DNA from: a virus | IMG/VR virus record: IMGVR_UViG_3300045988_165047 | Direction: 5' to 3' (one strand) | DNA: 64,000 bases | Shown here: positions 1,474-55,739 of the stretch, in pieces | How positions within the stretch are numbered: position 1 is the stretch's first letter | How the letters are laid out: every line of letters begins with the position of its first letter | Notes under the pieces: model-generated | Told to the model about the DNA's origin: nothing | Databases searched by the model: none | What the model saw: only the letters and a program-made list of their open reading frames with translations | Translations under genes and position numbers: made by a program

Positions 1474-3138
1474 TTAGTATGAACTTCTTCTAATAGTGTT
1501 TATTTCGTCAATAACTCCAGCGTAGAGGGGGTTATCAAGGACTTCCATTTCTTCCTCAACCTCTCCACCGACTTCTCTTGAGGCGGCTAGACTCATAAGT
1601 GCCGCACTATCCACGAAGTCGTCAAAGTACCCATCCGCCTTCTGACACACGAGGTAAGGTCCGTTAAAGAACTTGGTGCAGTTCAGCATCTGTTCCTCAA
1701 ACTTCTGATACTCCGTTGTAGCTCTGACGCTAGGGTTTGCTGGAACAATAAGTCGTCTAGTCTGAATATCAGATATGAAGTTAAACCACATATCTGACTT
1801 ACTCTGCGTTGTGAAGGTGTAAGGAACAATGTCCACATACTCACCACAAGCGTAAGAAAGTCGGTCTACTACTGCTCTACCTACCCCCGTATAGTCTGCA
1901 AAGATAACAGATATATTGTACTCTATGATAGCGTCCATTATGATATGGTGTTGCGTCTCATAGTCCGCTGTACCGAGAGCTAGCCACGCAAGTATCTGTT
2001 TGTAGGGCTTACCGAATGGGTCTTCCTCATCATTCCATACTTTCGCTATCGTTAAGACTGTCTCAGCAGGAGATTTTGCAATATCAAGCCCAGCCACGAC
2101 AAAGTCATTAACTCTGGGTTCTTGTAGCCCCAGCTTTCTATTGATGATACGAGCATACTCCTTATCGGTAAGAAGCATACCGCTCTCAACGTCCCATATC
2201 AGAGCAAAAGCAAGGCGGAAGGCTTGGGAGTCTTCTCCCCATCGGTCTCTCTTACGGAGAATGTCCGCTTCATAGTTAAGGTGAAAGCGTTTCCCGTCTA
2301 TGGAGAACTGCTTCCTTCGGTCCTTTATGATGTCCTTGTAGTTGTACTCATAGTGTTTGCGTGTTAGAGGGTTCTTACTCTTAGCGTCCTCCTTTCGGTT
2401 GTTCACAATCTCGTAGTAGAAGTGGTTCTTGGTTGTACCCGTAGTTCCCACCTTAACAAGAGTACCTGCCGTAGAAGAAAGCATAGGCTCAATAGACTTA
2501 CTCACAATAAGGTCATCTACGTCCTGCGCTTCTTCAACTATTACAAGGTCATACGTCTTTGATTCAATCTTACTCTGCTTACTCGCTACCTGTCCTGCAA
2601 GGAAAGACCCATTAGTAAGCACGAGTTTAGCGGAGCTATCAAGCCCTACATCAATATCGGGGTCGTCCATAACCATTTCAGCGTTGGCAGACCTAAGACG
2701 GCTAAGCGCACGGGAGTACGTAGTAACCACCTGGTCAGACTGCGGAGCAAACAACCCTACACGGAAACCATCCTTGAACTGCTCCAAGTCTGGAATGAAC
2801 TTAGCAAGAGCTGGTAATAGTACTACGAGGGTGTCAATAACGAACGCCATAGCCTCCGATTTACCACTCTGTCGGGAGAGAAGGACGGTCTTAACGTCCC
2901 CCGAGAAGGTAATTACGGAGTGAATAATCCCATAGGCGATAGCCTCTTGGTAGTCATACAGACTAATACCCGTGAGTATCTTCCCAAACTCCATTATCTT
3001 GTTGGTGACATCGTGGGCATCAAAGGACACCTCTTTGGATATAACGGACAGGTCTATATCGTCAATACTTCCTCCTGTCGCAGGGAACACATATCCCTCG
3101 TCTGCTACCTTAGTTTGATTTTTCTTCTTTTTAGACAT
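1474..3138 (-). CDS. terL: Terminase large subunit (TerL)
   Basis: ORF 1474..3150 trimmed to the ATG at 3136-3138 (MSKKKKNQ). Walker A-like LLSRQSGKSEAM, Walker B-like DLVIVEEAQD, and a C-terminal nuclease-like half (GLDIAKS, FADYTGVG). The portal lies directly downstream. Confidence 0.9.
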   Translation of the reverse strand: MSKKKKNQTKVADEGYVFPATGGSIDDIDLSVISKEVSFDAHDVTNKIMEFGKILTGISLYDYQEAIAYGIIHSVITFSGDVKTVLLSRQSGKSEAMAFVIDTLVVLLPALAKFIPDLEQFKDGFRVGLFAPQSDQVVTTYSRALSRLRSANAEMVMDDPDIDVGLDSSAKLVLTNGSFLAGQVASKQSKIESKTYDLVIVEEAQDVDDLIVSKSIEPMLSSTAGTLVKVGTTGTTKNHFYYEIVNNRKEDAKSKNPLTRKHYEYNYKDIIKDRRKQFSIDGKRFHLNYEADILRKRDRWGEDSQAFRLAFALIWDVESGMLLTDKEYARIINRKLGLQEPRVNDFVVAGLDIAKSPAETVLTIAKVWNDEEDPFGKPYKQILAWLALGTADYETQHHIIMDAIIEYNISVIFADYTGVGRAVVDRLSYACGEYVDIVPYTFTTQSKSDMWFNFISDIQTRRLIVPANPSVRATTEYQKFEEQMLNCTKFFNGPYLVCQKADGYFDDFVDSAALMSLAASREVGGEVEEEMEVLDNPLYAGVIDEINTIRRSSY

Positions 3139-3172
3139 AAAAATACCCAAGAGGCTTGTTGCCCCTTGGGTA
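3139..3172 (-). terminator. Stem-loop plus U-run abutting the TerL start codon
   Basis: On the minus strand this reads TACCCAAGGGGCAACAAGCCTCTTGGGTA followed by TTTTT and then ATG. The stem is 8 bp (3144-3151 / 3165-3172). Confidence 0.55.
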
Positions 3173-4342: not shown

Positions 4343-4870
4343 TTATTTATTAGAATAATTCATAGTTCCCTTGTCAAGCCTCCACTCTTGGAGTCTCTTC
4401 AAAAACTCTTCGGTCATCTTGTACACTGGTGGTTCCGAGGTGTCCACCCAGCAGTTGGGAGTCTCATAGAGTCTGATGTTCTCAAGAGTTAGCAACTTCT
4501 CAGATTTCATCAACTCCTTAATGATGACAAACAGCTCGGCGCTGATATTTTCAGCGGTCGGGTTGCAGTACCCCTCATTACCGAGACCCATAGGGAATAA
4601 CCTCCACCCCTCTTTCTTACACATATCAATTAACCCCGTGTCTTCTGGGTTAAAGATACCTGCGTGGTCCAAATGCTCGTCAATCCACTGACAAGCGATG
4701 CGCTTGATTTCCTTGAAGTCAATAGCGTACCCGATTTCCTCGGTCTGTTCAAAGGAGAACGTTATCTCCACCTTGAACCTATGCCCGTGAAGGTTGTAGC
4801 ACTTGACCCTCTCATTCATCACTCTGTGAGCCGCATCAAACTCACAAATTCTAGTTATCGTCTGTCTCAT
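4343..4870 (-). CDS. queD: 6-carboxy-5,6,7,8-tetrahydropterin synthase (QueD / PTPS family)
   Basis: ICEFDAAHRVMNERVKCYNLHGHRFKVEITF carries the Cys-x3-His-Gly-His PTPS/QueD signature. The start is trimmed to the internal ATG (MRQTITR) that abuts the stop of the upstream ORF. Confidence 0.85.
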   Translation of the reverse strand: MRQTITRICEFDAAHRVMNERVKCYNLHGHRFKVEITFSFEQTEEIGYAIDFKEIKRIACQWIDEHLDHAGIFNPEDTGLIDMCKKEGWRLFPMGLGNEGYCNPTAENISAELFVIIKELMKSEKLLTLENIRLYETPNCWVDTSEPPVYKMTEEFLKRLQEWRLDKGTMNYSNK

Positions 4871-4871
4871 T

Positions 4872-5102
4872 TTAAGGATGCTTCTTAGTTGTTCTTTTGT
4901 AGGGGAACACGTCTCGGATATTGTGAGAGAAGTACGTCCCCTTACTTTCGGAGCGAAGAAACTCACCCCACACTCTGAGAGATACACCGCTATACGTGTA
5001 CACCCACGTGGGTCTGTTTATGAACACCATAGTCAGCTTTAGTGTACGTCTATCGTACTCGGCTGATTTTATGTTGGAAGAGTTTACTAACATAGTCTGC
5101 AC
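4872..5102 (-). CDS. KTSC-domain-like small protein
   Basis: 76 aa. The pattern SSNIKSAEYDRRTLKLTMVF...WVYTYSGVSLRVWGEFLRSESKGTYFSHNIR resembles the KTSC domain. Confidence 0.55.
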   Translation of the reverse strand: MQTMLVNSSNIKSAEYDRRTLKLTMVFINRPTWVYTYSGVSLRVWGEFLRSESKGTYFSHNIRDVFPYKRTTKKHP

Positions 5103-7595: not shown

Positions 7596-8363
7596 TTATC
7601 GCTTTTTGGGTTGAAGTTGTCTTAGTTCTTCTAGGTAGTCCCACAGAGCAGAGTCTATGTAGCTTACCTTGCAAACACTGGGGGTATTATTGAGGTGTTC
7701 GCTAACGTAGGTAGCTACCTCTTTAACCTCTTCACGACGCTGTTTTTTGGTCGTTGGAAGTTCCCTTTCAAGGATGTCCTTTACAGCATCCCACGCTACG
7801 ATGTTTGCCCGTAGCGTTCTAAAGTCTTTTGGGGTAAACGTGTTACCCACGTACTTCTTGACAAACTTAGTAAGTTCATACGCCGTTATGTCAAAGATAG
7901 TTTCCGCTTCATAACCATTAAGAAGCGCACGAACCTGCTTAGAGAGCGTTTTGTCTAGTTTGAAGGAGTTTTCAACCTGCTTCTTTCCAAGAAAGTGCAG
8001 GTATACAACACCACGTTTTACCTCCACGTGCTCACGAAGGAGCGTAGTAAGCCCATACGTTTGTACAAACTCAGGTTCTTTAGAGCTGTTTGGGTGTGGC
8101 TGAGTAACATAGCCCTCAGAGCTACCTTCGTTACCTATACGGATACCCGTGTACATCATCAGTTTGCACGCTAGTGCGAGTCTTGCGGTGTCAGAAGTGT
8201 TCCGACCACGCTCAATCATCCCATCAAACTTCTCAGAAAGCTCGTCAAAGCGATAGGCTAGCTTGACGGAGCGGTTAAATTTGTCCGTATTTCTCCCCTT
8301 TAGGGAGCGGAAAAACTTATACTCCTCCCCACACAGCTCTATAATCGTAATTGTTTTAGCCAT
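7596..8363 (-). CDS. Type IB DNA topoisomerase (poxvirus/bacterial TopIB type)
   Basis: Ordered TopIB catalytic motifs are present: TGIRIGNEG, LHFLGKKQV, TPKDFRTLRAN and LNNTPSVCKVSYID. The last carries the active-site Tyr in an SY(I/V) context. Confidence 0.8.
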   Translation of the reverse strand: MAKTITIIELCGEEYKFFRSLKGRNTDKFNRSVKLAYRFDELSEKFDGMIERGRNTSDTARLALACKLMMYTGIRIGNEGSSEGYVTQPHPNSSKEPEFVQTYGLTTLLREHVEVKRGVVYLHFLGKKQVENSFKLDKTLSKQVRALLNGYEAETIFDITAYELTKFVKKYVGNTFTPKDFRTLRANIVAWDAVKDILERELPTTKKQRREEVKEVATYVSEHLNNTPSVCKVSYIDSALWDYLEELRQLQPKKR

Positions 8364-8774: not shown

Positions 8775-9470
8775 CTACCGCTTTTTGAGGGGGTAGAAAT
8801 TAGAGAAAGAGAATAGGAAGAGGTCATTTTCAAGAGCAGAGCCCTTTTTGAGCTTGAAATTCTCAAAGTCACCATTAAACGTGGCTAACTTTTTCAGCTC
8901 TTTAAGAGTCTTCTTATCAAGTGCACTCTCATACTTAGAGTACTCAAGATTGAAATTCACCGACATACCGCCTCGCCACCATACGTTGTCTTTAGCGTGG
9001 TTAGCGTATTGATACGCCGACACCCAGTTGGCTGCACGGAGGAGAGCTTCGGTTTCGGGGTCCTCTTGAGCGGTTGCACGCTTCTTGTCACGCAAACGAT
9101 AATACAGCGTATTATCAAGCTTTTCAAGTAACGTTTTAGCATCATCGCTGAGGTAGCAGTCGTTGTCCCAATAGCCTCGTTCTCTCAAGTGTATCATTTC
9201 AAAGGACTTCGTAATGGAGTCCATGACTTTGTAACCATTGAGACCGAGTTCCTTTAGGGTACTTCTTACCTTAGTGAGTAAAGCCTTGAGTGACTCGTCT
9301 GGAGTTTCCTTTTTGGGGACACTCTTAGTTACGAATGTCACAGGCTTTTCTAGAAGGTTGTAGCGTTCCTTTGGGAAATTTCCCTTGTTCTTCTCCACAC
9401 GGATGCAGAACATTAAGGTAGTTAGCGTCTCGTGGACACCGACAAACACTCTTACGTCTTCTGTACGCAT
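8775..9470 (-). CDS. Tandem paralog A (unknown function)
   Basis: 231 aa, clearly homologous to 9592..10254 (VFVGVHE..LMFCIRVEK...LRAANWV). A TATATTTG box lies 5 nt before the ATG. Confidence 0.75.
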   Translation of the reverse strand: MRTEDVRVFVGVHETLTTLMFCIRVEKNKGNFPKERYNLLEKPVTFVTKSVPKKETPDESLKALLTKVRSTLKELGLNGYKVMDSITKSFEMIHLRERGYWDNDCYLSDDAKTLLEKLDNTLYYRLRDKKRATAQEDPETEALLRAANWVSAYQYANHAKDNVWWRGGMSVNFNLEYSKYESALDKKTLKELKKLATFNGDFENFKLKKGSALENDLFLFSFSNFYPLKKR

Positions 9471-9591: not shown

Positions 9592-10254
9592 CTACTCCTT
9601 TTCAAGAAGATAGCTGTTTAAGGATGAAAATAGGTAAAAATCATCGTGCAGGCGTGATTTTGGCTTAAGTTTGAAAGAAGAGAAATCTTTTTCAAACGTA
9701 GCCATCGTTTTCAGCTCAGCAAGGAGAGCTTCATCAAGTTCCTTGCGTCGCTTAGCGAGTTTTTGCTCAGACAGCCCCATTGCCCCCTCTTCAGAGAGAC
9801 ACTGATGCTGTTTAGCATAAACCCAATTAGCCGCACGTAGAATGGCGTCAGCCCCTGGGTCCTCGGATGCGTACTCCAACTCATGCTCGTCAATATACGT
9901 AGATAACGCATAACGGAGCTTTTCAAATAGAGAAGCCCCTTTACCATTATAAGCATACGCATCAGGTCTTCCTAGGTCGTACAGAGAGCCATAGATTTCA
10001 TAATCTACGTCTTCTGTGCTGTACCCCTCCAAACCAAGTTCTTTTAGGGTATTTTGTACCTCGGAAAACATGAGCCTGAGCGTTGGGAGGTCATCCTCCA
10101 GCCTAGGGATGGTCTTAGTGACGGATGCGATGGGCTTTTCCTTGAGGTTATAATACTCCTCTGGGAAACGGAACTTCTCCACACGAATGTGGAACATTAG
10201 TCCCTCATGCACCTCGTGGGCACTAAGGAACACCTTTACATTTTTGGTACTCAT
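9592..10254 (-). CDS. Tandem paralog B (unknown function)
   Basis: 220 aa, homologous to 8775..9470. A TATAATTG box lies 4 nt before the ATG. Confidence 0.75.
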   Translation of the reverse strand: MSTKNVKVFLSAHEVHEGLMFHIRVEKFRFPEEYYNLKEKPIASVTKTIPRLEDDLPTLRLMFSEVQNTLKELGLEGYSTEDVDYEIYGSLYDLGRPDAYAYNGKGASLFEKLRYALSTYIDEHELEYASEDPGADAILRAANWVYAKQHQCLSEEGAMGLSEQKLAKRRKELDEALLAELKTMATFEKDFSSFKLKPKSRLHDDFYLFSSLNSYLLEKE

Positions 10255-10327
10255 AATTCAATTATATTTAGGTTAGTATTTACTACGCTAAATCGTGTAA
10301 GCCGCTTGCTTATCACCAGTGGAGGGC

Positions 10328-10343
10328 GTTACACACGTGTAAC
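10328..10343 (-). promoter_or_regulatory. Palindromic element GTTACACACGTGTAAC in the leader of paralog B
   Basis: 7-bp arms. It shares its core with the 9541-9578 palindrome. Confidence 0.4.
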
Positions 10344-10418
10344 ATTTACCACTACATTGACCATCATAACCACTACTTCTGTCACTTAGTCGTTATTGGT
10401 TGGTCATTGATTACATTA

Positions 10419-10449
10419 CAAAGATAGTAACTTTTATTGAACTAACAAA
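10419..10449 (-). promoter_or_regulatory. Near-consensus Bacteroidota promoter TTTG-N19-TATCTTTG
   Basis: The minus strand reads TGTTTGTTAGTTCAATAAAAGTTACTATCTTTG. It is the first promoter-like element leaving the gene-free region and points at paralog B. Confidence 0.6.
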
Positions 10450-10531
10450 CATTTTAGGGCGTTTGGGTGAAACTTTTTTATAAGTAGTTAGTTTATAAGC
10501 ACTTACAAGTAGAAAATTTTTTCATCAGCAA

Positions 10532-10607
10532 GGGCAAACGGGGTACATACGGGCAAAAGTAGGGGCAAAGCAAGGGGTAAAACGGGGCGTTTTGGGGGCG
10601 TTTGGGG
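10532..10607 (+). repeat. Eight phased G3-5 tracts (about 10.3-nt period)
   Basis: G-tract starts at 10532, 10540, 10551, 10562, 10574, 10584, 10594 and 10604, separated by A/T-rich spacers. Confidence 0.8.
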
Positions 10608-10697
10608 CGTTAGGCACGTTGCACCACGGGGCATATTTATACGTAGGCACACACGTATGCACACGCACGAGGGAGCAGCGTTGTACACTTACATAGT

Positions 10698-10798
10698 ACA
10701 CCACCACACGAACGAACCACCACACCACCATATCAAGACACCACACCACAGAAGCACACCACGACACCACCATACCATACCACCACTATACCACCACA
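10698..10798 (+). repeat. About 100-nt CA-rich low-complexity tract (CCACC/ACACC words)
   Basis: caccaccacacgaacgaaccaccacaccacc...ataccaccacaat. The track ORFs that overlap it translate to low-complexity sequence. Confidence 0.8.
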
Positions 10799-10881
10799 AT
10801 AGTACGCACATATACACTAACTAAAAATGTCCATGTTTCTAATTTCTATTTTCTAATATAAGCGGACTACCGCTGAGTAAC

Positions 10882-10908
10882 TTCAATTCATCCCCCTCTT
10901 TAAGGGGG
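10882..10908 (-). promoter_or_regulatory. Stem-loop followed by TGAATTGAA (partial copy of a conserved leader element)
   Basis: The minus strand reads CCCCCTTAAAGAGGGGG-ATGAATTGAAG. Compare 28072-28105 and 53995-54028. Confidence 0.35.
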
Positions 10909-11340
10909 TGGGGAGCAACCACTAGCACAAGGGTGCCATAATTCTGGGCATTCTTTGCCACGCACCCCAGGGTCTCCCTCCATAAAAACACCCACACGGG
11001 GGTACCTTTGGCGTTTTCGTTTACTTTTCATCCGTTACCTATATGGTATTATGTATGTTCTTACTCTTATAATAGTATTATAGGTGCTTATTAAGCGTTT
11101 CACCGCCGAAATTTTTCCTTTCTATGCCACGCAGTGTGCTCCATCAGCATATATTATATACTTATACTATGATATTACGCTTACCTAACTACATTTTCAT
11201 ATTGCGCCCAATGATTTCCCAGCGCTTTTACCGCTTTTATGCCACAAACGCTATTACCTAAGTTAGTTTTCAGATGAATTGCATACATATACTACTTACC
11301 TACTACTATAATTCAGCTCTTATACTACTATTATATAGCT

Positions 11341-11375
11341 CTAACTACATAAATAAGTGTGCTAACTACATAAAT
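11341..11375 (+). repeat. Direct repeat CTAACTACATAAAT x2, 21-nt spacing
   Basis: Copies at 11341-11354 and 11362-11375. Confidence 0.8.
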
Positions 11376-11414
11376 GAGCATCTAATTTCAGTTTTACTCC
11401 GCAATTCTAGTTGC

Positions 11415-11447
11415 AAAACTACTCTACCTACAAGTAAAACTACTCTA
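11415..11447 (+). repeat. Direct repeat AAAACTACTCTA x2, 21-nt spacing
   Basis: Copies at 11415-11426 and 11436-11447. Confidence 0.8.
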
Positions 11448-11637
11448 TGCGCCCAAAAATTAGAATGCGCTTTGTAGTTTACGAGCATCTTGAGCTAAAA
11501 TTAGTAGTGTATCTACGTGTAATAGTAGTTACCTAATTAGAAAATTAGATTTCTGAGCAGAAAAATCATTCTAATCTGCGTGTAAATTAGAATGCACCAA
11601 GAAAAATTAGAAGAAATCTAGTTCAAGACCGCAGTTC

Positions 11638-11664
11638 TATATAATATATATAATATATTATATA
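11638..11664. other. 27-nt A/T-only tract (possible DNA unwinding element)
   Basis: tatataatatatataatatattatata, embedded among the 8-mer repeats. Confidence 0.5.
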
Positions 11665-11897
11665 GTTTTCTCCGCCAAATTGCAAACACAACTTCTAATT
11701 TCAAATTACGCACGCTAATTTCAAATTGCGCCTTGTAGTTTTTAGACGCACAAGCTAATTTTTGGGAGCAAATTCTAATTTCCGCAGTAGTTTTTAGTTG
11801 CTGTTTCTAATTTCAGTACGTAATTCTTATTGTAGTTATACTCTAACTAGAAAACTACGCATCTAATTTCAAATTAGAATTGCACATACAAATTACG

Positions 11898-12065
11898 CTA
11901 GTTTTTCTGCGTTGAAAACTAGAATTAGAACGCTAGAAACTAAGTTACTCTAATTAGAAACTAAATTAACCTAGTTACTAACTAAAATTAGAACGCCGAA
12001 ATCTAAAATTACGCAGTTAGAAACTAAAATAACGCCTCTAAAAACTAAATTAGCGCCGATTACAA
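11898..12065 (+). repeat. Eight tandem degenerate 21-bp units (iteron-like)
   Basis: Units start at 11898, 11919, 11940, 11961, 11982, 12003, 12024 and 12045. Each begins CTA(A/G). Examples: ctagaattagaacgctagaaa, ctaaaattagaacgccgaaat, ctaaaattacgcagttagaaa. Confidence 0.8.
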
Positions 12066-12314
12066 TGAAAACCCATTCAGAAAAAGTACCTCTAATTTCG
12101 TAACTACCTGATAATGGGGTGTTTGACCCCCTATAAAAACGACACTTTGATACACAAAAACCACCTAAAAACTACCTAAAAACGCTATAAAATGCAGTTA
12201 CTCTAATTTCTAATTACTTACACGTATATACCTATATAGTAATAAGCAAACCCTTCGCAAACCCAGTGGCTACGGGCTTTTCGCTATGCCAAAACCCAAA
12301 GGGCTTACCCACAC

Positions 12315-12389
12315 ACATAGTTACATACACTTTGTTTCGCCTATGTACATAGTTACACACGTATATAAATACCCACGTACATAGTTACA
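12315..12389 (+). repeat. Direct repeat ACATAGTTACA x3, 32-nt spacing
   Basis: Copies at 12315-12325, 12347-12357 and 12379-12389. Confidence 0.8.
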
Positions 12390-12640
12390 TATAGATAAAC
12401 ACGCATTTAAGGCCGCGAATCTGTTTCCTTTTCAGCACCGCTTTCTGCGTATTACAACCACAACCGCCGATTTTGTTATTGTTCTATTGGTTGCACACAG
12501 CTACCTTATACAGATGTTATACTATTACTACCTAGATATAGAGTAGATTTTGCGCCCTTTTGTTACCCTTACCGCCTATAAGCAGTTTTACCCGCCAAAA
12601 TTTTACCCGCAACAAATTGAATTTCTAGGTTGCATATACC

Positions 12641-12665
12641 AAAAACGAAAGGGAGCCTGTCTCCC
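12641..12665 (-). terminator. Rho-independent-type terminator
   Basis: The minus strand reads GGGAG-ACAGG-CTCCC followed by TTTCGTTTTT. It lies about 95 nt after the stop at 12760 and closes the long upstream operon. Confidence 0.6.
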
Positions 12666-12759
12666 GACAAACTCCCTTCCTACTACTAATACTAACCCAT
12701 TATAGGCAGGTTCATCACTCCTACCTATGAGTTTACCACAAAGATTTTATGTGGTATTT

Positions 12760-13577: not shown

Positions 13578-13822
13578 TTATATAGGGCGGACATATTGCC
13601 CCCGTCCAAGATTTCGTAACTCTTCACGTCACCGATTGCTTGGAACTCAAACTCGTACCTATACACCCTAAGAATGAGACTACCTCTAACATAGTCAGTG
13701 TAGAACTCATTCTTGGGTGCGGTTTTCTCTCGGAGGTGTCTCCAATACCCGATAACCATCATCAAGGCTTGCCCAAGAACGATGATTATCATAATGCCGA
13801 GACAGACTACTTCTTTACTCAT
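13544..13822 (-). CDS. Small membrane-anchored protein
   Basis: 92 aa with an N-terminal hydrophobic helix VVCLGIMIIIVLGQALMMVIGYW. Confidence 0.5.
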   Translation of the reverse strand: MSKEVVCLGIMIIIVLGQALMMVIGYWRHLREKTAPKNEFYTDYVRGSLILRVYRYEFEFQAIGDVKSYEILDGGNMSALYKWALLKRRNAK

Positions 13823-14157
13823 ATAGTTGGAATCTTGTTGTAATACTCATTTATGTGTTCATCTATGAGCTTCATAACCACGTAAGGGTTTTGGTAGTCC
13901 TCTCCACAGATGAAGTTTTGCAAGATAGCCTCCGTGGTCCCGTAAGGCACTTGTTTAAAAGAAGTGTCCCCTTCCTTCATATAGATGATAGAGCCGTCTA
14001 CGGCACGTGGGAGCGCTCTTGTTGGTTGATACTCCCCATGCCCCGTAGAGGTTGGAACACCCATTACATCTCCAGAGGTCTCATATATGACTACCAAGGA
14101 ACCTCCCTTAGCCATAACTATGTCACCCTTCCTGGCTACAACTACGTCCTCCTTCAT
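13819..14157 (-). CDS. Small paralog family member 1 (KGDIV...YETS N-terminal module)
   Basis: RKGDIVMAKGGSLVVIYETSGDV matches KKGDIVHVKTGVLEIMYETSDDI in the next gene. 4-nt overlap. Confidence 0.65.
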   Translation of the reverse strand: MKEDVVVARKGDIVMAKGGSLVVIYETSGDVMGVPTSTGHGEYQPTRALPRAVDGSIIYMKEGDTSFKQVPYGTTEAILQNFICGEDYQNPYVVMKLIDEHINEYYNKIPTI

Positions 14158-14498
14158 ATTGTAACAGCTCGCTCATACTCCCTAAGTAGTGCCTCGGTAG
14201 GTGCGGACCTCTTCCACCTGTACGAAATACCCTTTATAGTCGCTACCTCAGTAATGTACCGCCTCTGGTCGTCAAACACGACAGGCTTAAAATCCCCAAT
14301 AGGGGTGTTACCTCTTATTGAGCGAGACACCTCAGAACCCCTTACGGGTAGCGGAGCGATTTCATCCCCATCTATTATGTCGTCGGAGGTCTCATACATA
14401 ATTTCAAGGACACCAGTCTTCACGTGAACTATGTCTCCCTTCTTAAAGAGAATGAATCTTACCCCTTTGGGAGACTTCACAACCTTCTTCTCAATCAT
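14154..14498 (-). CDS. Small paralog family member 2 (C-terminal PTE..Y.E tail)
   Basis: It shares the N-terminal module with member 1. C-terminus: SAPTEALLREYERAVTI. Confidence 0.65.
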   Translation of the reverse strand: MIEKKVVKSPKGVRFILFKKGDIVHVKTGVLEIMYETSDDIIDGDEIAPLPVRGSEVSRSIRGNTPIGDFKPVVFDDQRRYITEVATIKGISYRWKRSAPTEALLREYERAVTI

Positions 14499-16434: not shown

Positions 16435-16718
16435 TGTCGTATGATTTCTTTTAAGTAGATGGTGTCCCCTCCCACACTAACAGCGGTGGATAGTGCTTTT
16501 AGCAGGACCTCCATCACGAGGGTTTTTTCAGTAGATGATGATGGCCTTTGAATGTTGTTGCACCCAAAGGCGTAATGTGGTGTAGTGACCTTTGCGAACA
16601 TCCTCCAGCAGGTGTCTTGCTTAACACCCCTAACGGATATGCCTATGGTAGCGTTGCTCCTTTCAAAGAGGAACTCCCCAGCACCCAAGGTGTTGAGGAG
16701 TACCACTACGTCCATCAT
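16422..16718 (-). CDS. Hypothetical protein
   Basis: 98 aa, tiled. Confidence 0.5.
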   Translation of the reverse strand: MMDVVVLLNTLGAGEFLFERSNATIGISVRGVKQDTCWRMFAKVTTPHYAFGCNNIQRPSSSTEKTLVMEVLLKALSTAVSVGGDTIYLKEIIRQWSQ

Positions 16719-17383
16719 ATTTTGATAGCTTGTAAGAACTCAGCCCTAAGAGGTCCATTAAAGAATACCCCACCGAGCTTAGAGGTTAGTGTATCACCGC
16801 CCTCGTCTTCCTTACCTCTGAAACTAACACAGAAATGTTCCGCCTTGATGACAACGGCAACATTCTCAGTCTCTAAGAGATAACTAAGCGTGTGGTAAAT
16901 CTGCTCTACTAAGCGTTCTTGTACCTGGGGTCTTCGGCAAAAGAACTCCACAACCCTATTAAGTTTAGAGAGTCCAATTACCTTCCCCTCGGGAATGTAC
17001 GCTACATAAGCCTGACCACGAATGGGCATCCAATGATGCTCACACATAGACTTCACACTGATGCCTCTCTCAAGTACCATACTACCATACTCCATAGAGT
17101 TACCGATGGTCATAATCTTGGGGAAGTTTTTGTAGTCCAATCCCCAAAATAATTCAGAGTGATACATCTTAGCCAATCGGCGAGGTGTCTCCATAAGAGA
17201 CTCATCTGTTAGGTCCAGACCAAGATTATGGTGCAGTAGGCTGAACAGCTTTTCAGTGTCTTCTCGTAGAGTATCCTCCTCCTTAATAAGGCGCACCATA
17301 GGTGTCTCCACTCCCATAGACTTTAAGTGTTCGTGAACCTCTCTACCTAATGCAAGGTCGGTTTTGTTTTTGTCTAATGCCAT
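16715..17383 (-). CDS. folE: GTP cyclohydrolase I (FolE)
   Basis: SMCEHHWMPIRGQAYVAYIP and RRPQVQERLVEQI are canonical FolE motifs. 222 aa. Confidence 0.9.
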   Translation of the reverse strand: MALDKNKTDLALGREVHEHLKSMGVETPMVRLIKEEDTLREDTEKLFSLLHHNLGLDLTDESLMETPRRLAKMYHSELFWGLDYKNFPKIMTIGNSMEYGSMVLERGISVKSMCEHHWMPIRGQAYVAYIPEGKVIGLSKLNRVVEFFCRRPQVQERLVEQIYHTLSYLLETENVAVVIKAEHFCVSFRGKEDEGGDTLTSKLGGVFFNGPLRAEFLQAIKI

Positions 17384-19684: not shown

Positions 19685-20164
19685 TTAAACCAAATTCTCG
19701 TACTTGCTCCAATCAATGGACGCTCTAGCCTGCCACCATTTCTGATAGACCCCCTCCACAAACTTTAGTGTGGTGAGGTAGAACTCCGTGAACTCCTCAA
19801 GCGTTGTAAACTCGTGGAATTGTGGTTCCGTATCTGTACCAAACTTGATAGTCGTAGGAAGGCTTTTACCTTGGGTCTGATAGGCGATGTCGTAGAGGAC
19901 CTTGTAGTTCAGTTTATCTTCGTTAGTGAGGTTCACAAACAACCCCTTCCACTCAAAACCCCGAAGGACCTCATCGTCCGTCATCGTCTTATACCAATCA
20001 ACCACCACTGCCTTTATCTGGTCAATGGTAGGTTTATAAGGGAGCACCGCTTGAATTAAGTCGTTTCCGAATACCCAAGAAAGTATCCACTCACCTTTTA
20101 CCTCGTTATAAGGAAGTAGAGAGGGGGTTGCCCCCTCTACTCCTTTAGTTACTAAGTATTCCAT
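19685..20164 (-). CDS. Fibre-associated protein (possible DUF4376-like chaperone)
   Basis: 159 aa, immediately after the giant fibre gene. DWYKTMTDDEVLRGFEWKGLFVNLTNEDKLNY resembles DUF4376. The function is inferred from position. Confidence 0.45.
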   Translation of the reverse strand: MEYLVTKGVEGATPSLLPYNEVKGEWILSWVFGNDLIQAVLPYKPTIDQIKAVVVDWYKTMTDDEVLRGFEWKGLFVNLTNEDKLNYKVLYDIAYQTQGKSLPTTIKFGTDTEPQFHEFTTLEEFTEFYLTTLKFVEGVYQKWWQARASIDWSKYENLV

Positions 20165-23100
20165 TATAAGAAATCTGTTATGTTAATGAACTCCTGTACA
20201 CTCTTCACCTCACGGATTTCTCCAGTGAACATAGGTCTTACCGCTTGTTCGGTGTTGGAGCTTTCTAGGATTTCAAACCATATTAAGCCTTTATCGTGGT
20301 GTCTATGTCCTATATAAATAGGAGAATCTGTATCTCCAACGCTCCAAATCTTGGAACCTGTGGTATAGAACGTAGAATTAGAACCACCTGAGAATTGATA
20401 TGGTGTAAGACCTATGATGTCCATGTACTTTTCGTGTCTAACTCTAAGTATGTTGGTCTCGTGGTTACGAACAAACCTCCATAAAGTGGTTTCTCCATTC
20501 TCTCTGCGAGCCTTGAAAATGGGGGCATCGCCATTCATGGACACCGAACTTCCTGTAAGAGCACCCCACCAGCCAGAGTCGAAGTACTCGTACCCCATCG
20601 TCTTTAGGGCTTGCTGACCTACCCATTCTCGGGATATACCACTAACCTTCCAGAAACCCCAATCTCCTGATGTACCATTCTTACGGACGTTATCTGACAT
20701 ACCACTTTCAAGGCATCTTCCCATAAAGTGTGCCCAATTACTCTCGCTCGTAAGTGACCCATGGTCCCAGCTCGTTATTGAACCGTCCCTCACATACTTC
20801 AAGTTTACTATATTCTTGTACTCCTCATAGGATATTATTTCCATACCCCTACTCGTCATAAGTGTCTCAAAGCTCTCCCTGTTTCTACCCGTAACGTGTC
20901 TATTAGACTGAATAAAATCCTTGAGAACTCCCGAGCCTATCTTCCCATTGACAGAGCATAGTTTGAAAGCCCCTACAAGTTTCGCCTTATGGCGAACCCA
21001 ATCAGTCTCTACATCTACTATATTACTCGTATTAGACACTACGGCGTATATGTCGGGAGAAGTCGCCCTAGGTGCCTGATTAGGTATGGAGAAGTAACAC
21101 CATTCTGCCCCATCTGGGATGTCAAGTACTACATACATTCCCTCTTCAAAGTACGAAGAATTGGTAGAAGGGGAGTAGGACTCTACAACCCCCCCATCTT
21201 CTCTTACTATGATTACACCTTCAGCGTTGCCAGATGTTGGAACCCTTACCTTCTTACCTCCTCGTACTTTAACCCTATAAGCTACTCTTGACGTGTCTTG
21301 AACTATGGAGTTTTTAGTAGTGCTTCCGGCCACTACCTTTTGGTTCACAAGCTCATTACCGCTACTACGAAGTTCTTCAAGAGTGAATTTAGTCGCATCT
21401 GGAGCGTCTGGTTTTACCCCGTACGCATAGCAGAAGTACTTCTTCATACTCTTTACGTCATTTACCCCCTTGTACCAATACTCTGGCTCATATATCATCA
21501 GGTCTCCCTGTGAAAGGTCTACCGCCGCATCGGTACAATTACTCTGTATCTCGTTGTCGTCATACTTCAAGAAGGTATCTTTTCTAAGACGGCAGATACT
21601 CATAACCCCCTTAGACTTTCGCTCCTGCTTAGCTAAACAAGGGAAGCGAGCGTTAAGGATAGCCGCAATATGCGCAGAGGGCTTATAGGCATTACCGAAC
21701 TTATACCCCGTCTTGTTGTCAAGGTTGGAGAGCTTAGCTGGAGTTGCCACCGCATCGTCAAGCTCAACAACTGTGTACTGAGGCTGACGAATGTTAAGCT
21801 CATCAAAGCGTTCTCTGTACTTCTCAAACACAGCTTCGTCAAGGTACTTAGTGAGCTGGTAATTACCTAGGAGCTTACACTTAGAAACGTTCTCCGTTCC
21901 ATCAGCGTTGATACCTCCAAGACCCTTAGCATACCAAGCCTCAAGTTCAGACCCGTCACCCGTAATAGAGCCGATATTGATACGGACATACTTCAAGGAG
22001 TTATTACCCGAAAGTATTTCCTTGAGGAGGTCCGTCCCCGATAGCTTGGGGCAATTTTCAACTCTAAGACCAACAAGGCGACTAACGTCCCCAAATACAA
22101 TACCCGCTCTCGTGATGTTTGGTAACGACACAAGAGACAGAGTCTGGTAGTTATTAGGGAGTTTCACCACCTTGACAGCGGAACTTTCTCCAAAGAGAAT
22201 AGACGAAAGAGAGTTACACCCACGTGCATCAACCTCTTCAAGTCTAGAGCACCCTGTTAAGCTAAGTGAAGGAAGGTTCTCATACCCATTAAGAGCGAGC
22301 TTTCTGAGCATAGGCAGGTTATCTCTAATGGCGAACTCTGTCAGACCATAGGACTTTCCTTCCTTACCCATAATCAGTTCCTCAAGAACGGGCATATTGG
22401 GGATGTCCAAATTCGTGAAGCCACCCCAATCAGAGAGGTCAAGTTTCGTTATCCACTGCCCACCATATAGATGGAAGATGGTACCGATATTAGCCACCTG
22501 AGTGTAGCGGTACACGAACTCTTCTCCCTTCTGTACCTTCTTATGAACCATAGAGGTTCCCTCTCTCTTGAACTCAAGATAGAAGTCTCTACCCGTTACG
22601 GCACGAATAGTAGCACCTGCTTCGGAGTTACCCTTCCAAGCGATGTCCGTTGCAGTGTACTGACCCGTAGCCGCCCAAGCATCAAACAGAGCCATTCGGT
22701 TATAGATGAACCACTCTCTGTGCGACTTTCTGTTCCCCTGCATACTTTCAAGGTAGGAGTACGTCTGCGTAGTAACTCTCCCGTCACGGATAACAGAGAC
22801 ACCCTTAGTCTTGGGGTCAATGTACTTTCTAAGAGAGTCCACATTGAATACTCGCTCACAGAAACGCTCACTCTGTTCGTCATTAAACATACGAAGGATG
22901 TCCGCATTAGAGAGTTTTGCTCTGATACGGAGATATGCCTTCTTGATTTCATCGGGGAACTGCTCACGCAGGTTCTTCCACAGAACACTATCGTGCCCAG
23001 CGAAAGCATAGACGGTCTTTCCTCCTACGGACAGCTCTGTGTCAATAGTCTCCTCGTTAATGTCCCAATGATAACGAAGTCTCCCGTCATTTCGGACACC

Positions 23101-26100
23101 TAGGATAGTATCGTTATCATAGAAAATCATATAGGCGAGTACCTTGTCACGCTTAGGCTCGTAGAAGAAACTCATCATCATATTCTTCACACGCTGGTCA
23201 CAGCAAGCGAACATATCCGTGAACACATAGTAGTCACAGAGGTAGTCTATATCAAAGTAGTCACCAAGCTCTCTCTTAAACTTAGTTTTTCTCTGAGTAA
23301 TTGCACTTGCAGAAAGCCCACTAGCGAGAGTGTCCGTAGAGTGTACCCACTTGACAAGAGGCTCAAGATACTTAGGTTTCAGCGTCCCATCAGCATACTT
23401 AGCGTTTATCCCCTTGTCATCGGGGAAGCGTGCTTCAAACACCTTCATCCAATTAGGAGTACCATCAGATGCCTTAGCGTCAAAGTCAGAGTCCTTAAAG
23501 CTACCCATTGGGTAGTCGTTATTAAGGAACTCCCAACATTCAGTAGGGTTCTTACCGCCAAACTTAGTCGTTACCCAAGTAGCATCGTGGTATCCAGGAA
23601 TACCTAAGAACCCGAAGACATCCTCGGTGCTCTTGTCGTTGTTAAAGTTGAACTTCCCTAGGAACTTAGGAGTCTCATCTACTGAACCACGATAGAAGAG
23701 CAAGCAAGGCTCTCCGTCCACGGTGGTACGCACATCCTTATCGTAGCGTTTTCTATCTACGTGCTTCTGAGGAGGAGTAAGTTCCCCTGCCTTAATGAGA
23801 GTGTTGTGGACAAGGCGAGCCATCCCCGTATTATGGGAGCTGGAGCTTTCAGCAAAGTCCGCTTTAAGACAGAAGCAATTTACGTCTGCACCAGCAGGCA
23901 TACCATCCTTAGCAATTCGGAACGTCCACTTACCACTTTCTCTGAGAGTACCACCTGCACCATTCTCATCACAACCTACAAACAACTGCCCCAACTTTTT
24001 CTCCTTAGAGCTATCGTAGGTGTAGATGCGGTAGTTCTTAGTGGGGTAAGCAAGAGACGAAGTTCCTTGAAGAGCTATACTCCCACCAATAAGACGGAAG
24101 TTCTGTTCGGGGACACCACCCTTCACAAAGGTGAAAATCTCAGATACGTCAAACTTCGTCTTCTTGTTATTATTCACTGCCGCATAAAGAGCGGTAGGCA
24201 TCCCACTTGAGTGAGTGCCTGTAATGATTACAACACGAAGTCCAGCAGGAGCACTTTCAACGCTAATGTCCCCTTCGGAGTTAAGGACATCATTCTGCTT
24301 GTACTCTGCGATAAGGTCGTCCACCTTGGGCTGACCAAGAATGTACAAGGAGAGTACCTGGTCATCAGTTAGGAACGTATTGTACGCTCTAATAGAATTA
24401 ACATCTATCGTAGCCTTCGTTGAACCTATCTTAATAGGCATAGGAGTGGCTTGATAGACACTATCAGTAGGACCTCTCTGCACCCCTGCGCACATTACCC
24501 CATTGATATAGAGGTAAACCATTTCAGAGTTATTCTTCTCGTACTCTGAAGACTCTGACTTACTTTGTGGGAACGACACAAACGTAACCTCGTAGGGAAC
24601 GTCTGAAGCCATCTTCATAGCGAGTTTGCTATTACCGCTCGTGATTAGCCTAGCTTCACTAGGAGTGATTTCAAACCCCGTTCCTCTAGAGTCTACGCAA
24701 GACACAACTACTGCATCGTGGTCTACTACCTCACTACACTTGTATCTGATAGAGAACGCAAACGCATTAGTTGTTGGGAGTACCTGCTGAAGAGGCTTGT
24801 AGTTTACTACTGATATAGCGTCCCCCTTGTGACGGAGTGCTCCGTTAATCCAACCATCACCACCAAAGTTGAAGCCTCTAAAGTCAGTAGTTACTCCGTT
24901 GTACGTCCAAGAGTCTCTCTTAACATCAGAGTTGCTTCTACCTTGTGCGGATAAGTGTAGCTTCAAACCATCGGTGGGTTCCGTAAGGTTAAGGTCCGTC
25001 TTACCTACCTGTAAGGTATAGGTGTACGTGGTATCGCCACAAGCAATTTTGCAGGAGCGTTCCCCTTCCCTATTACTACGTAACTGAAGCTCATTGTCCA
25101 CGAAGGAAACCTTAGCAGAAGCAACTACCTCGTCACCCTCATATACCGCAACAGCCGTTGGAGTCTCAAGAGGGTTGTACACAGCATAGCTTAACGTATA
25201 GGTGTCAAACTGCTTAGTGACCAATTCAGGTCTCTGTCCAGCGGTGTAAACTCTCCCGTCCGCATAGTCAAAACGGGTACAAACAATAGGTCTGTTAATA
25301 CCCTTAGTGACTACGGCTACATCAAAGTAGATGCTGTTTGACTTAATAGTCCCACCGCCTAGAACTTCAAGCTCCGCAACTAATTGTACAGAGTTAGAGC
25401 CGTGAGACATTCTGCTTGTGTCAATCGTAAACGCCCCGTTAGCCGAGGATGCGGTAATAGTTCTGTCTTCGGTGGGTGCGCCATTGACGTAGCAACGAAG
25501 AACCTTACTACCACTACCCGACAAAGCATAGGGAATGGACAAGGACTGACCTCTCTCCGTGAGAGTGGAGATAGAGTATGAGCTGGTAAGTTTCAGCTGA
25601 ATTACATTCACCGTCCACGAAGCCGAAGCAACCTGTCTATCACTACCCGAGCCAACCTCTAAGCGCACTCGGATATTATTAGCACCGACACCCACAAACT
25701 TAGTAGCGTCAATCTTCTGTGTGCTCCCAGCAGGTACGTTTGATTCAAAAGAGTACGAAGTAGCCCCTCTAGTAATAGTTACGACAGCCTTAGCAGGGTT
25801 ACCCGTAGTGTCCTTGGTCTCCGTATTGATTTGGTCATAGGAGTAGACAAGTGCAACCTCATCCCCAGCCTTTACATTAAGGTTGGGAGTTACACGAGTA
25901 AGGACAATCTTGGTTGCACTTTGAGAACCTCCACCGCCACCTGTGATGGGACCTTCGGTAGAGATTTCTTCCCCAAGCATATTGTTCACTACAATTCGGT
26001 AGACCTTATCAGCGCCTTCCCCTTCTTCCTCAACCTTGATACCACCAACGGCTTCCTTCTTGAGCTGTTGGATAGCGGAATGAACCGCCCCACTCTGAAC

Positions 26101-37134: not shown

Positions 37135-37248
37135 AAGATTTCTAAGCTAGTATTTAGGTAGGGTGGTTGGAGTTGCACCAACACAGCCTATTGGCACCCA
37201 CTTTAAGTAGGCTCGCTTACTACGTGCGCCACACCCTACACATTAGGC

Positions 37249-37315
37249 AACCCCATAGAGGACTTGAACCTCAATCTTTCCCGTCGGACTGCTCTAGCCA
37301 TTGAGCTAATGGGGG
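37249..37315 (-). other. Degenerate tRNA-like sequence (too short for a canonical tRNA)
   Basis: The minus strand has a good D-arm (GCTC-AATGGCTA-GAGC) and T-arm (GAGG-TTCAAGT-CCTC) and an acceptor stem CCCCCAT/ATGGGGT. Only about 16 nt lie where the anticodon arm and variable loop should be. Confidence 0.3.
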
Positions 37316-47535: not shown

Positions 47536-47888
47536 AGGTTGTTTCTTGAGTACATATTATGTGTCTTAGCGTCTAGCCTATGGTTATCAGCGATAACCTC
47601 TGCTATGGGCTTCTTAGCCTTCTCTATCCTATCAAGAAGAGTTTCCACCCAAGTTTCCACCGAGCGAGACTTCTTGATAAGTTGGTGTTCCTGCACCGCA
47701 TTTACCCGAGTTGATAACTCAATTATGCGGTCCATCTTGCCCTTTTCAAAAGAGCCGAGGACGAAAAACGAACCATCCACCTCAATCAACCTCTTTGAGT
47801 AAAAGGTACAGAGTGAGACAACGCCGTTTATTATCCTCTCAAAGGTGTACTCCGACTTATCTTGTCGGACAGAATAGTTAGAACTCAT
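47469..47888 (-). CDS. Hypothetical protein
   Basis: 139 aa. Confidence 0.55.
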   Translation of the reverse strand: MSSNYSVRQDKSEYTFERIINGVVSLCTFYSKRLIEVDGSFFVLGSFEKGKMDRIIELSTRVNAVQEHQLIKKSRSVETWVETLLDRIEKAKKPIAEVIADNHRLDAKTHNMYSRNNLWKVVVAINGLSQELLQLPFQY

Positions 47889-49158
47889 CTAATACCTCCT
47901 CAGTTATCTCGGGTTTATGTTTCTCCACGGGCTTCGTTATGGAGTGCACCATATTGGTAAGGTCGTTCTGGAAGGTAAGCGTTGTTCCTGCTGGAGCACG
48001 TCTACCTTTAACCACTTCAAGACCTACCAATTCGTTGTACTTCATATCAGCCGTTTGGAACATTCGTATAGCGATGTCCGAATCTTGTACGAACGAACTA
48101 CCATAAGCAAAGTCATCCTGACCATCAAGAGCGAATTTACTACCCGTTTTACCACTACCTCTACGGAGCTGTGTGGTGTTTATGATAGGTGTCTTAAAGC
48201 TCTTGGCAATTCGTTTCAAGTTTCGTGTGATGTAGGCTATCTTCTCCCACCCTTCGGTTTGTCGGCTTTCCATAAGGTAGGACCCGTCCAAGAACACTGC
48301 GCTCGGTTGGTAGATGCCTAAGAGTGTTGTAAGCTCATCAATAGACTGACAGCTGGGGACTATTCTAATCTTGGATGGGGTCTTCTCCAACCCTTCAAGA
48401 CCAGCATAGTAGCGTTTCTTCTCTCTAGAGGTTAATGAACCTCCGTTGAAACGTTCAAAGGGTAGGGAGAACCTTATGCAGTCCATCCGCTCCTTGATTT
48501 CGTCATCCGACATTTCGTTAGTGACGAACAGAATATCTCCATAGGTTTCACCCGTCTCCTTCTCCTTAGCAAGGACAACACGTTCCAATTCAAGAGCGAG
48601 GAACACGATACACCAAGTTTTACCTTGACCACTCTTACCACCTATGGTGATTAGGTCCTCCCTTCGGTACCCAAAGAAAACACTATCAAGGTCGTCCTGT
48701 CCCATACTAAGGTAGACAACACCGCCTGTTTTCTCTCGGTCCTCATACTCCGTCTTTCGCTTTTCAGTGTTTTCAGAGTAAAGGGTATCTCGTGACCCCG
48801 TAGTGTCACCACTGAGAGAAGATACTAACTCTTGTAAGTCAGAGAGTCTCTTGCGAGGTTCATCCCTAACGCCCTTTAGAAGTCGGGGAACCTCCTCCGA
48901 AATGGTGGCAAAGATGTAACGCTCTTGTAGTTTGGTGAGGTAGTGGGCTGGTTTAGCATCCACCTCAGAGGAGGACACCTTGAACTCTCTACAAAAGGTT
49001 CTTATACCTACGTGTTCACCAAACTCTTTGTAGTAGTCAAGAATAAACTTATGCTGTTTCAGCTCTACACCATCAAGCCACTTCTTGTTTATCGCAGAGA
49101 GTGTGCGACTATCTCTAGTTTTTAAGCACGCTATAAGTAGTTGTTCTCCGATTGTCAT
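47878..49158 (-). CDS. DnaB-like replicative helicase
   Basis: Walker A IGGKSGQGKTW within a RecA-like C-terminal domain. The N-terminal domain is helical. It is adjacent to the loader and primase. Confidence 0.8.
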   Translation of the reverse strand: MTIGEQLLIACLKTRDSRTLSAINKKWLDGVELKQHKFILDYYKEFGEHVGIRTFCREFKVSSSEVDAKPAHYLTKLQERYIFATISEEVPRLLKGVRDEPRKRLSDLQELVSSLSGDTTGSRDTLYSENTEKRKTEYEDREKTGGVVYLSMGQDDLDSVFFGYRREDLITIGGKSGQGKTWCIVFLALELERVVLAKEKETGETYGDILFVTNEMSDDEIKERMDCIRFSLPFERFNGGSLTSREKKRYYAGLEGLEKTPSKIRIVPSCQSIDELTTLLGIYQPSAVFLDGSYLMESRQTEGWEKIAYITRNLKRIAKSFKTPIINTTQLRRGSGKTGSKFALDGQDDFAYGSSFVQDSDIAIRMFQTADMKYNELVGLEVVKGRRAPAGTTLTFQNDLTNMVHSITKPVEKHKPEITEEVLDEF

Positions 49159-55720: not shown

Positions 55721-55739
55721 CTATAAGACTATTCTAAAT

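Follow-up and report, generated by a model that had tools for sequence, protein, structure and literature searches.

A phased array of eight degenerate 21-bp units in a large non-coding region of a gut myophage genome

Background

The iteron origins of plasmids and phages, such as P1 oriR/incA, F ori2, R6K gamma, pPS10 and lambda ori, are among the described systems closest to the element analyzed here, an array of eight 21-bp units located at positions 11898-12065 of a 64,000-nucleotide stretch of virus DNA (IMG/VR virus record IMGVR_UViG_3300045988_165047); this whole stretch is referred to as the window, and about 13 kb of the genome lie beyond it. Terminase recognition arrays, such as R1-R3 of lambda cosB with an IHF bend and the SPP1 pacL/pacR boxes, comprise 3-7 sites in or beside terS, the small terminase gene. 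ParR/parC centromeres (R1 parC, pSK41) are contiguous phased direct repeats, cooperatively bound. The small protein p6 of phage phi29 forms a weakly sequence-specific periodic array, with a period of 24 bp, and wraps the origin DNA at the genome ends. In the PLE satellite of Vibrio cholerae the origin lies within a 2.7-kb non-coding region, and the iterons of RepA_N systems are described as direct repeats of a semi-palindromic type that converge on a poly-A tract (PMC7145576).

A sequence-only reading of the window had described the array as iteron-like, and had taken its register as a sign of selection on spacing, as in initiator-binding iterons or centromere-like sites. According to the computational analysis reported here, the array probably represents a functional, phased set of protein-binding sites. 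That the array, and the field of sites around it, may serve as the replication origin of the phage is put forward as a tentative assignment.

Results

The 21-bp array

11898-12065, no strand: phased array of eight 21-bp units; junction core RAAA-CTAAAWT (unit boundary at the hyphen), then a G/C-containing spacer (ACGC/GCGCC)

The start coordinates and the letters of the eight 21-nucleotide (nt) units, as given by the sequence-only reading, were all found to be correct, and every unit starts with CTA(A/G). Columns 1-3 (CTA), 7 (T) and 20 (A) of the unit show no variation, and the consensus is CTAAAtTtACgcCGtTAaAAA. The formal check of periodicity, which the same reading had called for, was run by using dinucleotide shuffles and Tandem Repeats Finder (TRF), and it bore out the 21-nt register. 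The self-match of the array at lag 21 is 0.605, as compared to 0.297±0.038 in the shuffles (z=8.1); none of 5000 shuffles gets to 0.605 at any lag between 5 and 63, their maximum being 0.488, and the array stretch ranks first for periodicity among all 168-nt segments of the 64 kb. TRF reports a period of 21 (5.5 copies), plus a period of 63 (2.2 copies, score 148). Lags 21, 42 and 63 are the only prominent ones, and no 7-nt sub-period was found within the array; contiguous motif spacings of 7 nt are present elsewhere in the surrounding non-coding region (the hub, described below) and in one of the relatives (L013).

Pairwise identity between units averages 0.58, while 0.30 is expected by composition, and the units are about 0.65 substitutions per site apart. 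The conserved columns run contiguously over the unit junction (RAAA-CTAAAWT), and this core of 8-10 nt is the only conserved part. The remainder of the unit forms a spacer containing G/C, in which a second motif may or may not be present; the enriched 9-mer AAATTAGAA sits at variable slots, within about half of the units only.

A coding origin of the 21-nt period, in the form of a heptad repeat, was considered and rejected: stops are present in all frames, including TAA/TAG in the only open-looking one, and a close relative (L001) carries a 1-nt indel nearby.

The array in related phages

The close relative, IMG/VR contig 3300045988_156346 (loci L001/L005), matches the hub and its flanks with 92-96% identity by blastn. 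The L001 hub shows about 94% identity in substituted columns, with about 155 substitutions and 9 indel events in respect to the window; the indel rate of the non-coding region is about 1 per 17 substitutions. Within the array, L001 has exactly one 21-nt unit fewer, and no other length difference is observed. An extra block of 285 nt in L001 consists of more AATTAGAA sites, and AATTAG is found there in 36 copies versus 24 in the window. Every other assembly of the strain is identical in the hub, so that no array variation was seen in the population. No intermediate relatives were found in the collections: below about 96% identity, the next values are 55% or less.

The nearest isolate is Bacteroides phage BS162P1, a lytic sewage phage, whose DNA polymerase shares 59.5% amino acid (aa) identity with that of the window; a literature search found no paper mentioning it. 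In the circular record its hub crosses the junction (87681-88902 plus 1-881, with an end overlap of 54 nt), and no match was obtained by comparing the hub of the window with phages, including BS162P1, by blastn in distant mode. AATTAG/TAATTA words are found 15 times in the BS162P1 hub, versus 0.8 expected, and the syntenic place is occupied by a phased array of about 10 units, with best lag 21, equalled by none of 2000 shuffles; TRF also assigns it a period of 21.

Among the other relatives, L013 contains 28 copies of the AATTAG motif, versus 1.4 expected, and a short array of period 19-20, while L011 has a short array of period 24; the arrays of L013 and L011 are not significant in the gapless test. 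A hub free of open reading frames (ORFs) is kept, with different words, in L006, L007, L009, L010 and L015. Across the clade, by these comparisons, the hub is conserved, and so is the use of many short sites; the 21-nt phasing is present in two or more deep lineages, with turnover of the motif.

The earlier claim that the spacing is under selection, and is not the outcome of a recent slippage, is favoured by the divergence of the units (58% identity), by the lack of frame-breaking indels, by the whole-unit change in L001 and by the array of BS162P1. The perfectly kept register, which had been offered as an argument, turns out to be suggestive and not decisive, because only about 2-3 frame-breaking indels are expected in the array, and the probability of observing none is about 0.04-0.13. 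The other periods of the short arrays in L013 and L011 likewise weaken the claim.

The clade is made of genomes of about 77-90 kb, common in human-gut metagenomes. The name "Salyersviridae", considered for it, was discarded as wrong, since it belongs to the BV01-like temperate phages. No relatives of the phage were found in 185,579 species-representative genomes, and no DNA match of the site field in 72,556 plasmids by blastn in distant mode.

The surrounding site field

The array is part of a larger field of short sites, whose components are listed here.

11380-12216, both orientations: site field of about 0.85 kb, of which the 21-bp array is the most regular part
11449-11612, plus strand: left cluster of AAATTAGAA(YGC) sites, oriented like the array, with AAA tracts phased at about 20.75-21 nt
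11635-11669, no strand: alternating-TA tract (TTCTATATAATATATATAATATATTATATAGTTTT; 30 bp), between site clusters of opposite orientation
11693-11825, minus strand: inverse irregular array of about 7 units, TTCTAATTTC / TAGTTTTTAG plus GC spacer, with a spacing of 15-23 nt

Proceeding along the field, plus sites are followed by the TA tract, minus sites, the regular 21-nt plus array and a few minus sites up to 12216. The field contains 20 AAATTAGAA-like sites (with at most 1 mismatch), 14 copies of AAACTA on either strand and 10 of its 7-nt form, AAAACTA; 13 of the 15 copies of AATTAGAA found in the window fall within 10837-12215, on both strands. In the interval 11350-12250, AAATTAG is present in 17 copies, versus 0.05 expected from the rest of the window, and AAAACTA in 10, versus 0.2 expected. 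Outside the hub AAATTAG stays at chance level across the remaining 64 kb, and is thus not a general promoter element.

Phasing is not restricted to the array. The AAACTA sites are phased at exactly 21.0 nt across the whole field, and also for AAA tracts, in the 540 nt preceding the array (11350-11890), the strongest period of occupancy is 20.75-21 nt, a result equalled by none of 500 shuffles; no helical phasing was found for the AAATTAGAA sites outside the array. Curvature was evaluated by a wedge model, with parameters after Bolshoy et al. 1991: four of the seven most curved spots of the window are in the hub, and the array is at about the 99th percentile.

The TA tract at 11635-11669, a candidate unwinding element or promoter, is nearly unchanged in L001 (1 mismatch). 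The 64 kb contain only one other long alternating-TA tract, at 55688-55726, which is intergenic, upstream of the helicase gene 54090-55643, and coincides with the second most curved spot of the window. Both tracts could be promoters or unwinding elements.

The hub and its genomic context

The site field lies within the hub, for which the following features were recorded.

10255-12759, no strand: hub, ORF-free, 2.5 kb; GC content 0.32-0.39, versus 0.45 elsewhere
12647-12680, minus strand: intrinsic-terminator-like hairpin plus T-run, ending the upstream operon of small ORFs; upstream boundary of the hub
10419-10449, minus strand: Bacteroides-type promoter candidate (TTTG, 19 nt, TATCTTTG) of the operon starting from 10254; downstream boundary of the hub
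10860-10916, minus strand: GC-rich island, CCCC-CCCCCTTAAAG...GGTAGTCCG, kept in the hubs of 8 relatives

The promoter candidate was selected according to the Bacteroides promoter consensus. No terminators were found inside the hub, which is the sole large repeat-rich non-coding region of the window; homologous ORF-free regions, of 0.85-2.7 kb, are present in every relative examined. All credible genes of the window are on the minus strand. The set of genes is typical of a virulent myophage, with baseplate and tube proteins and a large terminase (TerL, 1474-3150), and includes genes for replication and recombination (Pol I, DnaB-like helicase, DnaC-like loader, primase, UvsX-like recombinase, ligase and type IB topoisomerase).

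The GC-rich island, which may also be read as GGGG/CCCC-CCCCTTAAATG…GGGGTAGTMCG, is embedded in DNA that cannot be aligned between relatives. It was found in the window and in L002/L003, L006, L009, L010, L011 and L013, always 0.4-1.2 kb downstream, in the sense of the genes, of the site arrays. RNAalifold predicted 3 pairs for the island, with no covariation. The pentamer CCCTT, the target of poxvirus topoisomerase IB, is contained in the island in 7 of 8 relatives, and the type IB topoisomerase gene (7596-8363 in the window) lies 1.5-2.5 kb downstream in every relative.

Other peculiarities of the hub may be mentioned. Nine tracts of three to five G residues are found on the plus strand in the region 10527-10615 / 10690-10806, where a G-quadruplex is possible; they adjoin a block of CACCAC/GGTGG repeats, for which TRF also reports a period of 21 (3.4 copies), and GGTGG-rich blocks are present at the corresponding place in BS162P1, L013 and L009. 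The sequence CATAGTTACA is repeated three times, with an exact spacing of 32 nt, at 12316-12389, and the stretch of 100 nt around it is the most divergent part of the hub in respect to L001 (44 mismatches). A junction between two metagenome contigs, at 12110-12130, sits at a GGGGT-GTTTG-ACCCC hairpin.

Directly downstream of the hub there is a pair of ORFan paralogues (8775-9470 and 9592-10254); 3 homologue clusters were found among 5.8 billion proteins, and the hub-adjacent protein, of 220 aa, is an ORFan with 3 homologue clusters. At this place L001 is about 0.8 kb shorter, the gene 9592-10254 shows about 50-60% DNA identity, versus about 96% for the flanking genes, and the gene 8775-9470 is barely alignable; by this comparison, the stretch is a local hypervariable or swapped cassette. 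The gene 14154-14498, coding for 114 aa, is missing from L001 and resembles its neighbour 13819-14157, with which it may form a tandem duplication pair.

A complete-looking set of genes for 7-deazaguanine DNA modification is present (FolE 16715-17383, QueD 4343-4987, QueC, QueE and two TGT/DpdA-like ORFs), hence the DNA of the phage is probably modified at G. The TerL homologues of BS162P1 (OP172706.1 9334-12054) and of MT835482 (MT835482.1 11123-13837) match in two pieces over 2.7 kb, which suggests an intein or another insertion, with no counterpart in the TerL of the window. A protein of 2546 aa (20164-27804) contains a CotH-kinase-like stretch (residues ~1503-1629) and matches two PHROGs of no assigned function. 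The tRNA calls differ between programs: a weak Rfam tRNA at 37249-37315 (35.7 bits) is not reported by ARAGORN, and the tRNA-Leu(taa) found by ARAGORN at 37157-37238 is not reported by Rfam at the gathering threshold.

Candidate binding proteins and the replication module

47878-50523, minus strand: replication-initiation module, comprising a 253-aa protein (49762-50523), a DnaC/IstB-like loader (49155-49817) and a DnaB-like helicase (47878-49158)
50778-51808, minus strand: other candidate DNA binders, a MerR-like helix-turn-helix (HTH) protein (50778-51092, weak match) and an HU-family protein (51524-51808, strong match)

The proteins which the sequence-only reading had named as candidate binders were thus all recovered, although with different strength: the match is strong for HU and weak for the MerR-like HTH, and the 253-aa protein is recognizable by its place upstream of the DnaC-like loader and DnaB. 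The latter protein has 104 clusters at 90% identity. Consistent sub-threshold matches to winged-helix domains were obtained for residues ~17-82, and nothing significant was found in Pfam, NCBIfam and by a PDB sequence search, nor by a profile search against 1.84 billion sequences; an AlphaFold model (predicted local distance difference test, pLDDT, 83.6) gave no significant PDB match by Foldseek. It would be the most plausible candidate for a trans-acting partner, or initiator, of the array.

No repeat arrays were found in or beside the replication module, or in the intergenic region at 55.6-55.9 kb. The genes flanking the 21-bp array are ORFans without Rep domains. Pfam and PHROG scans of the window ORFs revealed no ParA, ParM, ParB or ParR, no integrase and no plasmid-type Rep, and no small terminase (TerS) was recognized among the same ORFs.

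Discussion

A predicted protein-binding array and a possible origin

A core recurring once per two helical turns, variable spacers, sites in two orientations, curvature and the gain or loss of whole units are, taken together, what one would with good reason expect of a cooperative protein-DNA array. The unit of 21 bp corresponds to two turns, so that the A-tract core (RAAA-CTAAAWT) would be exposed on one face of the helix, alternating with the G/C-containing spacer, and would offer phased sites to a sequence-specific DNA-binding protein of the phage or of the host. Since the same core returns on one helix face every two turns, bound protomers could be in mutual contact, and the DNA could be bent or wrapped by them into a single nucleoprotein complex. 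The presence of sites in both orientations fits the recognition of double-stranded DNA rather than of RNA. Segments of 21 or 63 nt, duplicated in tandem, and inserted site-rich blocks would be the source of new sites.

A role as the replication origin is favoured because the phage encodes a putative initiator-loader-helicase module with no repeats in or beside it, so that the origin must lie elsewhere, and because the hub is the only repeat-rich non-coding region of the window. A nucleoprotein complex would assemble on the arrays and the TA tract at 11635-11669 would melt; the DnaC-like loader would then put the DnaB-like helicase on the melted tract, with the 253-aa protein, whose gene immediately precedes that of the loader, acting as the initiator.

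Several observations weigh against this assignment. The units, with 58% identity, are far more degenerate than classical iterons, the putative initiator gene is 38 kb from the array, and the TA tract does not adjoin the 21-bp array, from which it is separated by 230 nt. No Rep_3, RepA_N or DnaD-type domains were found in any ORF scanned, and DnaA boxes are at chance level, with no cluster. No inflection of GC skew is seen at the hub, where the one-strand gene layout would mask one. Among the relatives, no protein of the replication module or adjacent to the hub tracks the AATTAG motif, and neither do HU and the HTH protein; several relatives have other motifs, and periods of 19-24 are seen in short arrays. 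Finally, the hub is where the assemblies of three relatives are interrupted, an observation at least as compatible with a terminus or packaging role.

A broader and rather speculative idea, to which we assign little probability, is that the hub is a hitherto undescribed composite cis-acting centre of this widespread clade of gut Bacteroides myophages, where replication initiation and genome-end processing are combined. On DNA modified by 7-deazaguanine, about 0.9 kb of degenerate 21-bp-phased sites may be covered by a small protein of the phage; by analogy with phi29 p6 or SPO1 TF1, the protein could be HU-like, and one large wrapped complex could be formed. The ends would possibly be processed at the CCCTT-containing island, by the poxvirus-type topoisomerase IB of the phage.

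Alternative explanations

That the hub is a packaging or terminus region, in which the small terminase, or an accessory protein, recognizes the arrays and the terminase is positioned near a cleavage site or a terminal-repeat boundary, is unlikely, although a number of observations would suit it. Candidates for the cleavage or boundary site would be the conserved GC island and the hairpin at 12116-12130. The hub heads the operon that leads to the terminase and structural genes, its DNA is curved and contains phased A tracts, and a short GC-rich island is conserved in it amid otherwise unalignable DNA. The BS162P1 record ends, with the 54-nt overlap, inside its hub, a coincidence with a chance of about 2% for a random break; the MT835482 scaffold begins in TAATTAC-motif DNA of the hub type, and two contigs of metagenome ERZ27263096 meet 45 nt from the array, sharing 14 nt (AACACCCCATTATC) at 12110-12123. 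The contig breaks may be explained by low coverage or repeats; for assembly breaks within hubs in general, physical ends, heterogeneity of repeats or low coverage are all conceivable causes. Circular permutation, with ends at positions 5142 and 16262 of the window, is seen in other assemblies of this phage. Moreover, pac and cos sites are usually in or beside terS, while here no TerS was identified, and TerL follows 8.7 kb downstream, after about 12 genes. No match in PDB was found for the TerL itself, and the phages nearest to it (Bacillus BCD7 and Streptomyces BRock-like) are uninformative on the type of packaging. The number of sites changes from 24 to 36 between near-identical phages, which also speaks against packaging.

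It is similarly doubtful that the array is a transcriptional or architectural element, consisting of operator-like or HU/TF1-like sites which insulate operons and time one or more hub promoters by bending or coating the DNA. The hub is indeed bounded by a terminator (12680-12647) and by a promoter candidate of the Bacteroides type (10449-10419), and the phage encodes both an HU homologue and a MerR-like HTH protein. TF1, the HU-like protein of phage SPO1, binds specific sites on modified DNA, and the phage described here likewise carries DNA-modification genes. The second TA tract is in an ordinary intergenic region, so that TA tracts may be parts of promoters. Yet the array is about 1.5 kb from the only good promoter candidate, and more than 2 kb of site-rich DNA, corresponding to 3% of the genome, would be too much for one promoter. 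In addition, the motif is missing from the other intergenic regions of the 64 kb, and, as said above, neither HU nor the HTH protein follows it among relatives.

The array might also be a decaying minisatellite, in which a 21-nt, and then a 63-nt, segment slipped and drifted neutrally, the register being a matter of luck and the motifs by-products of the copying of AT-rich DNA. The higher-order period of 63 nt found by TRF would agree with this, as would the whole-unit difference from the close relative, taken as ongoing gain and loss of units, the small number of frame-breaking indels expected, and the arrays of other periods, not significant in the gapless test, in L013 and L011. This explanation is nevertheless improbable: in BS162P1, at about 60% protein identity, the DNA is not alignable, yet the corresponding place carries a significant and independent 21-nt array, which extends conservation well past the close relatives. 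Tandem copying could not produce the 20- to 300-fold enrichment of 7-9-mers observed field-wide in both orientations, the phasing continues beyond the array, and the hub is free of ORFs in every relative examined.

Action at the RNA level, with the hub transcribed and the motifs working in a non-coding RNA, such as a protein sponge or a structured leader, has very little probability. The lack of an internal terminator makes read-through possible, and the minus-strand RNA of the array folds slightly better than shuffles (z=-2.7), a signal which follows from the semi-palindromic nature of the sites. Motifs are found equally on both strands, no Rfam match was obtained for the array or the hub at the gathering threshold, or even at E<=1, the only Rfam hits of the window being tRNAs elsewhere, and the conserved island shows no covariation.

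The centromere-like role suggested by the sequence-only reading, that of a partition site bound by a ParR- or ParB-type adaptor, is the least probable of all and is disfavoured, although phased short direct-repeat arrays resemble parC-type centromeres (R1 parC, pSK41), since the scans of the window ORFs detected no linked partition NTPase (nucleoside triphosphatase) or binding-protein gene, integrase or plasmid-type Rep, the species genomes and plasmids searched gave no relative or DNA match that would indicate plasmid or prophage maintenance, and the closest isolate is lytic.

Implications

The hub is the genome's only large cis-acting region, and the array is the clearest handle on it. Should it prove to be an origin or a packaging signal, it would provide a defined fragment for phage-dependent Bacteroides replicons or phagemids, for interference constructs based on origin titration, and for the identification of the binding protein. 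The array also offers a neat natural example of conservation that concerns spacing and not sequence.

Comparison with known systems

The features shared with iteron origins are direct repeats phased at about 21-22 bp, inverse copies and a variable copy number. Iteron origins also have an adjacent AT-rich unwinding element, often with DnaA boxes; the TA tract here is within the site field, at 230 nt from the array, and DnaA boxes are not enriched. Iterons are recognized by at least three direct repeats of 17-22 bp, phased by about two turns, and such repeats are present both here (8 units) and in BS162P1 (about 10). Classical iterons are in addition nearly identical and adjoin a gene for an initiator of the Rep or O type, while the units of the array have an identity of 0.58, no Rep/O-type gene adjoins them, and no cluster of DnaA boxes is found. 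The array would work in the manner of an iteron or phased binding array; lacking these two classical features, near-identical repeats and an adjacent Rep gene, it was not filed in the iteron family, and the iteron label of the sequence-only reading was dropped. The array is, moreover, embedded in a much larger field of 7-9-bp sites, unlike what is seen in iteron origins.

ParR/parC centromeres differ from the array in that no partition NTPase or adaptor gene was found here, and no sign of an episomal lifestyle. With terminase arrays the hub shares repeated short sites and intrinsic bends, in non-coding DNA at the head of a late operon; the hub has more than 30 sites, at 8.7 kb from TerL. The PLE and RepA_N systems lack a counterpart here in respect to the RepA_N domain, which was not found in the window, and a replication role of the hub is in our case predicted from sequence. 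Common to these systems and the hub are a non-coding region of about 2.5-2.7 kb with several sets of repeats, and a unit start, CTA-AAAT-TAG, which matches a semi-palindrome.

The period of the array, 21 bp, is different from the 24 bp of phi29 p6, no p6 homologue was found, and the genes do not suggest a protein-primed replication from linear ends; the likeness resides in the combination of degenerate units, strict spacing and phased A tracts, which is well accommodated by a protein of the p6 kind. The answers to the question of function are likely to be conventional, and the array is best described as a member of a known broad class, that of phased protein-binding arrays in the non-coding control regions of phages.

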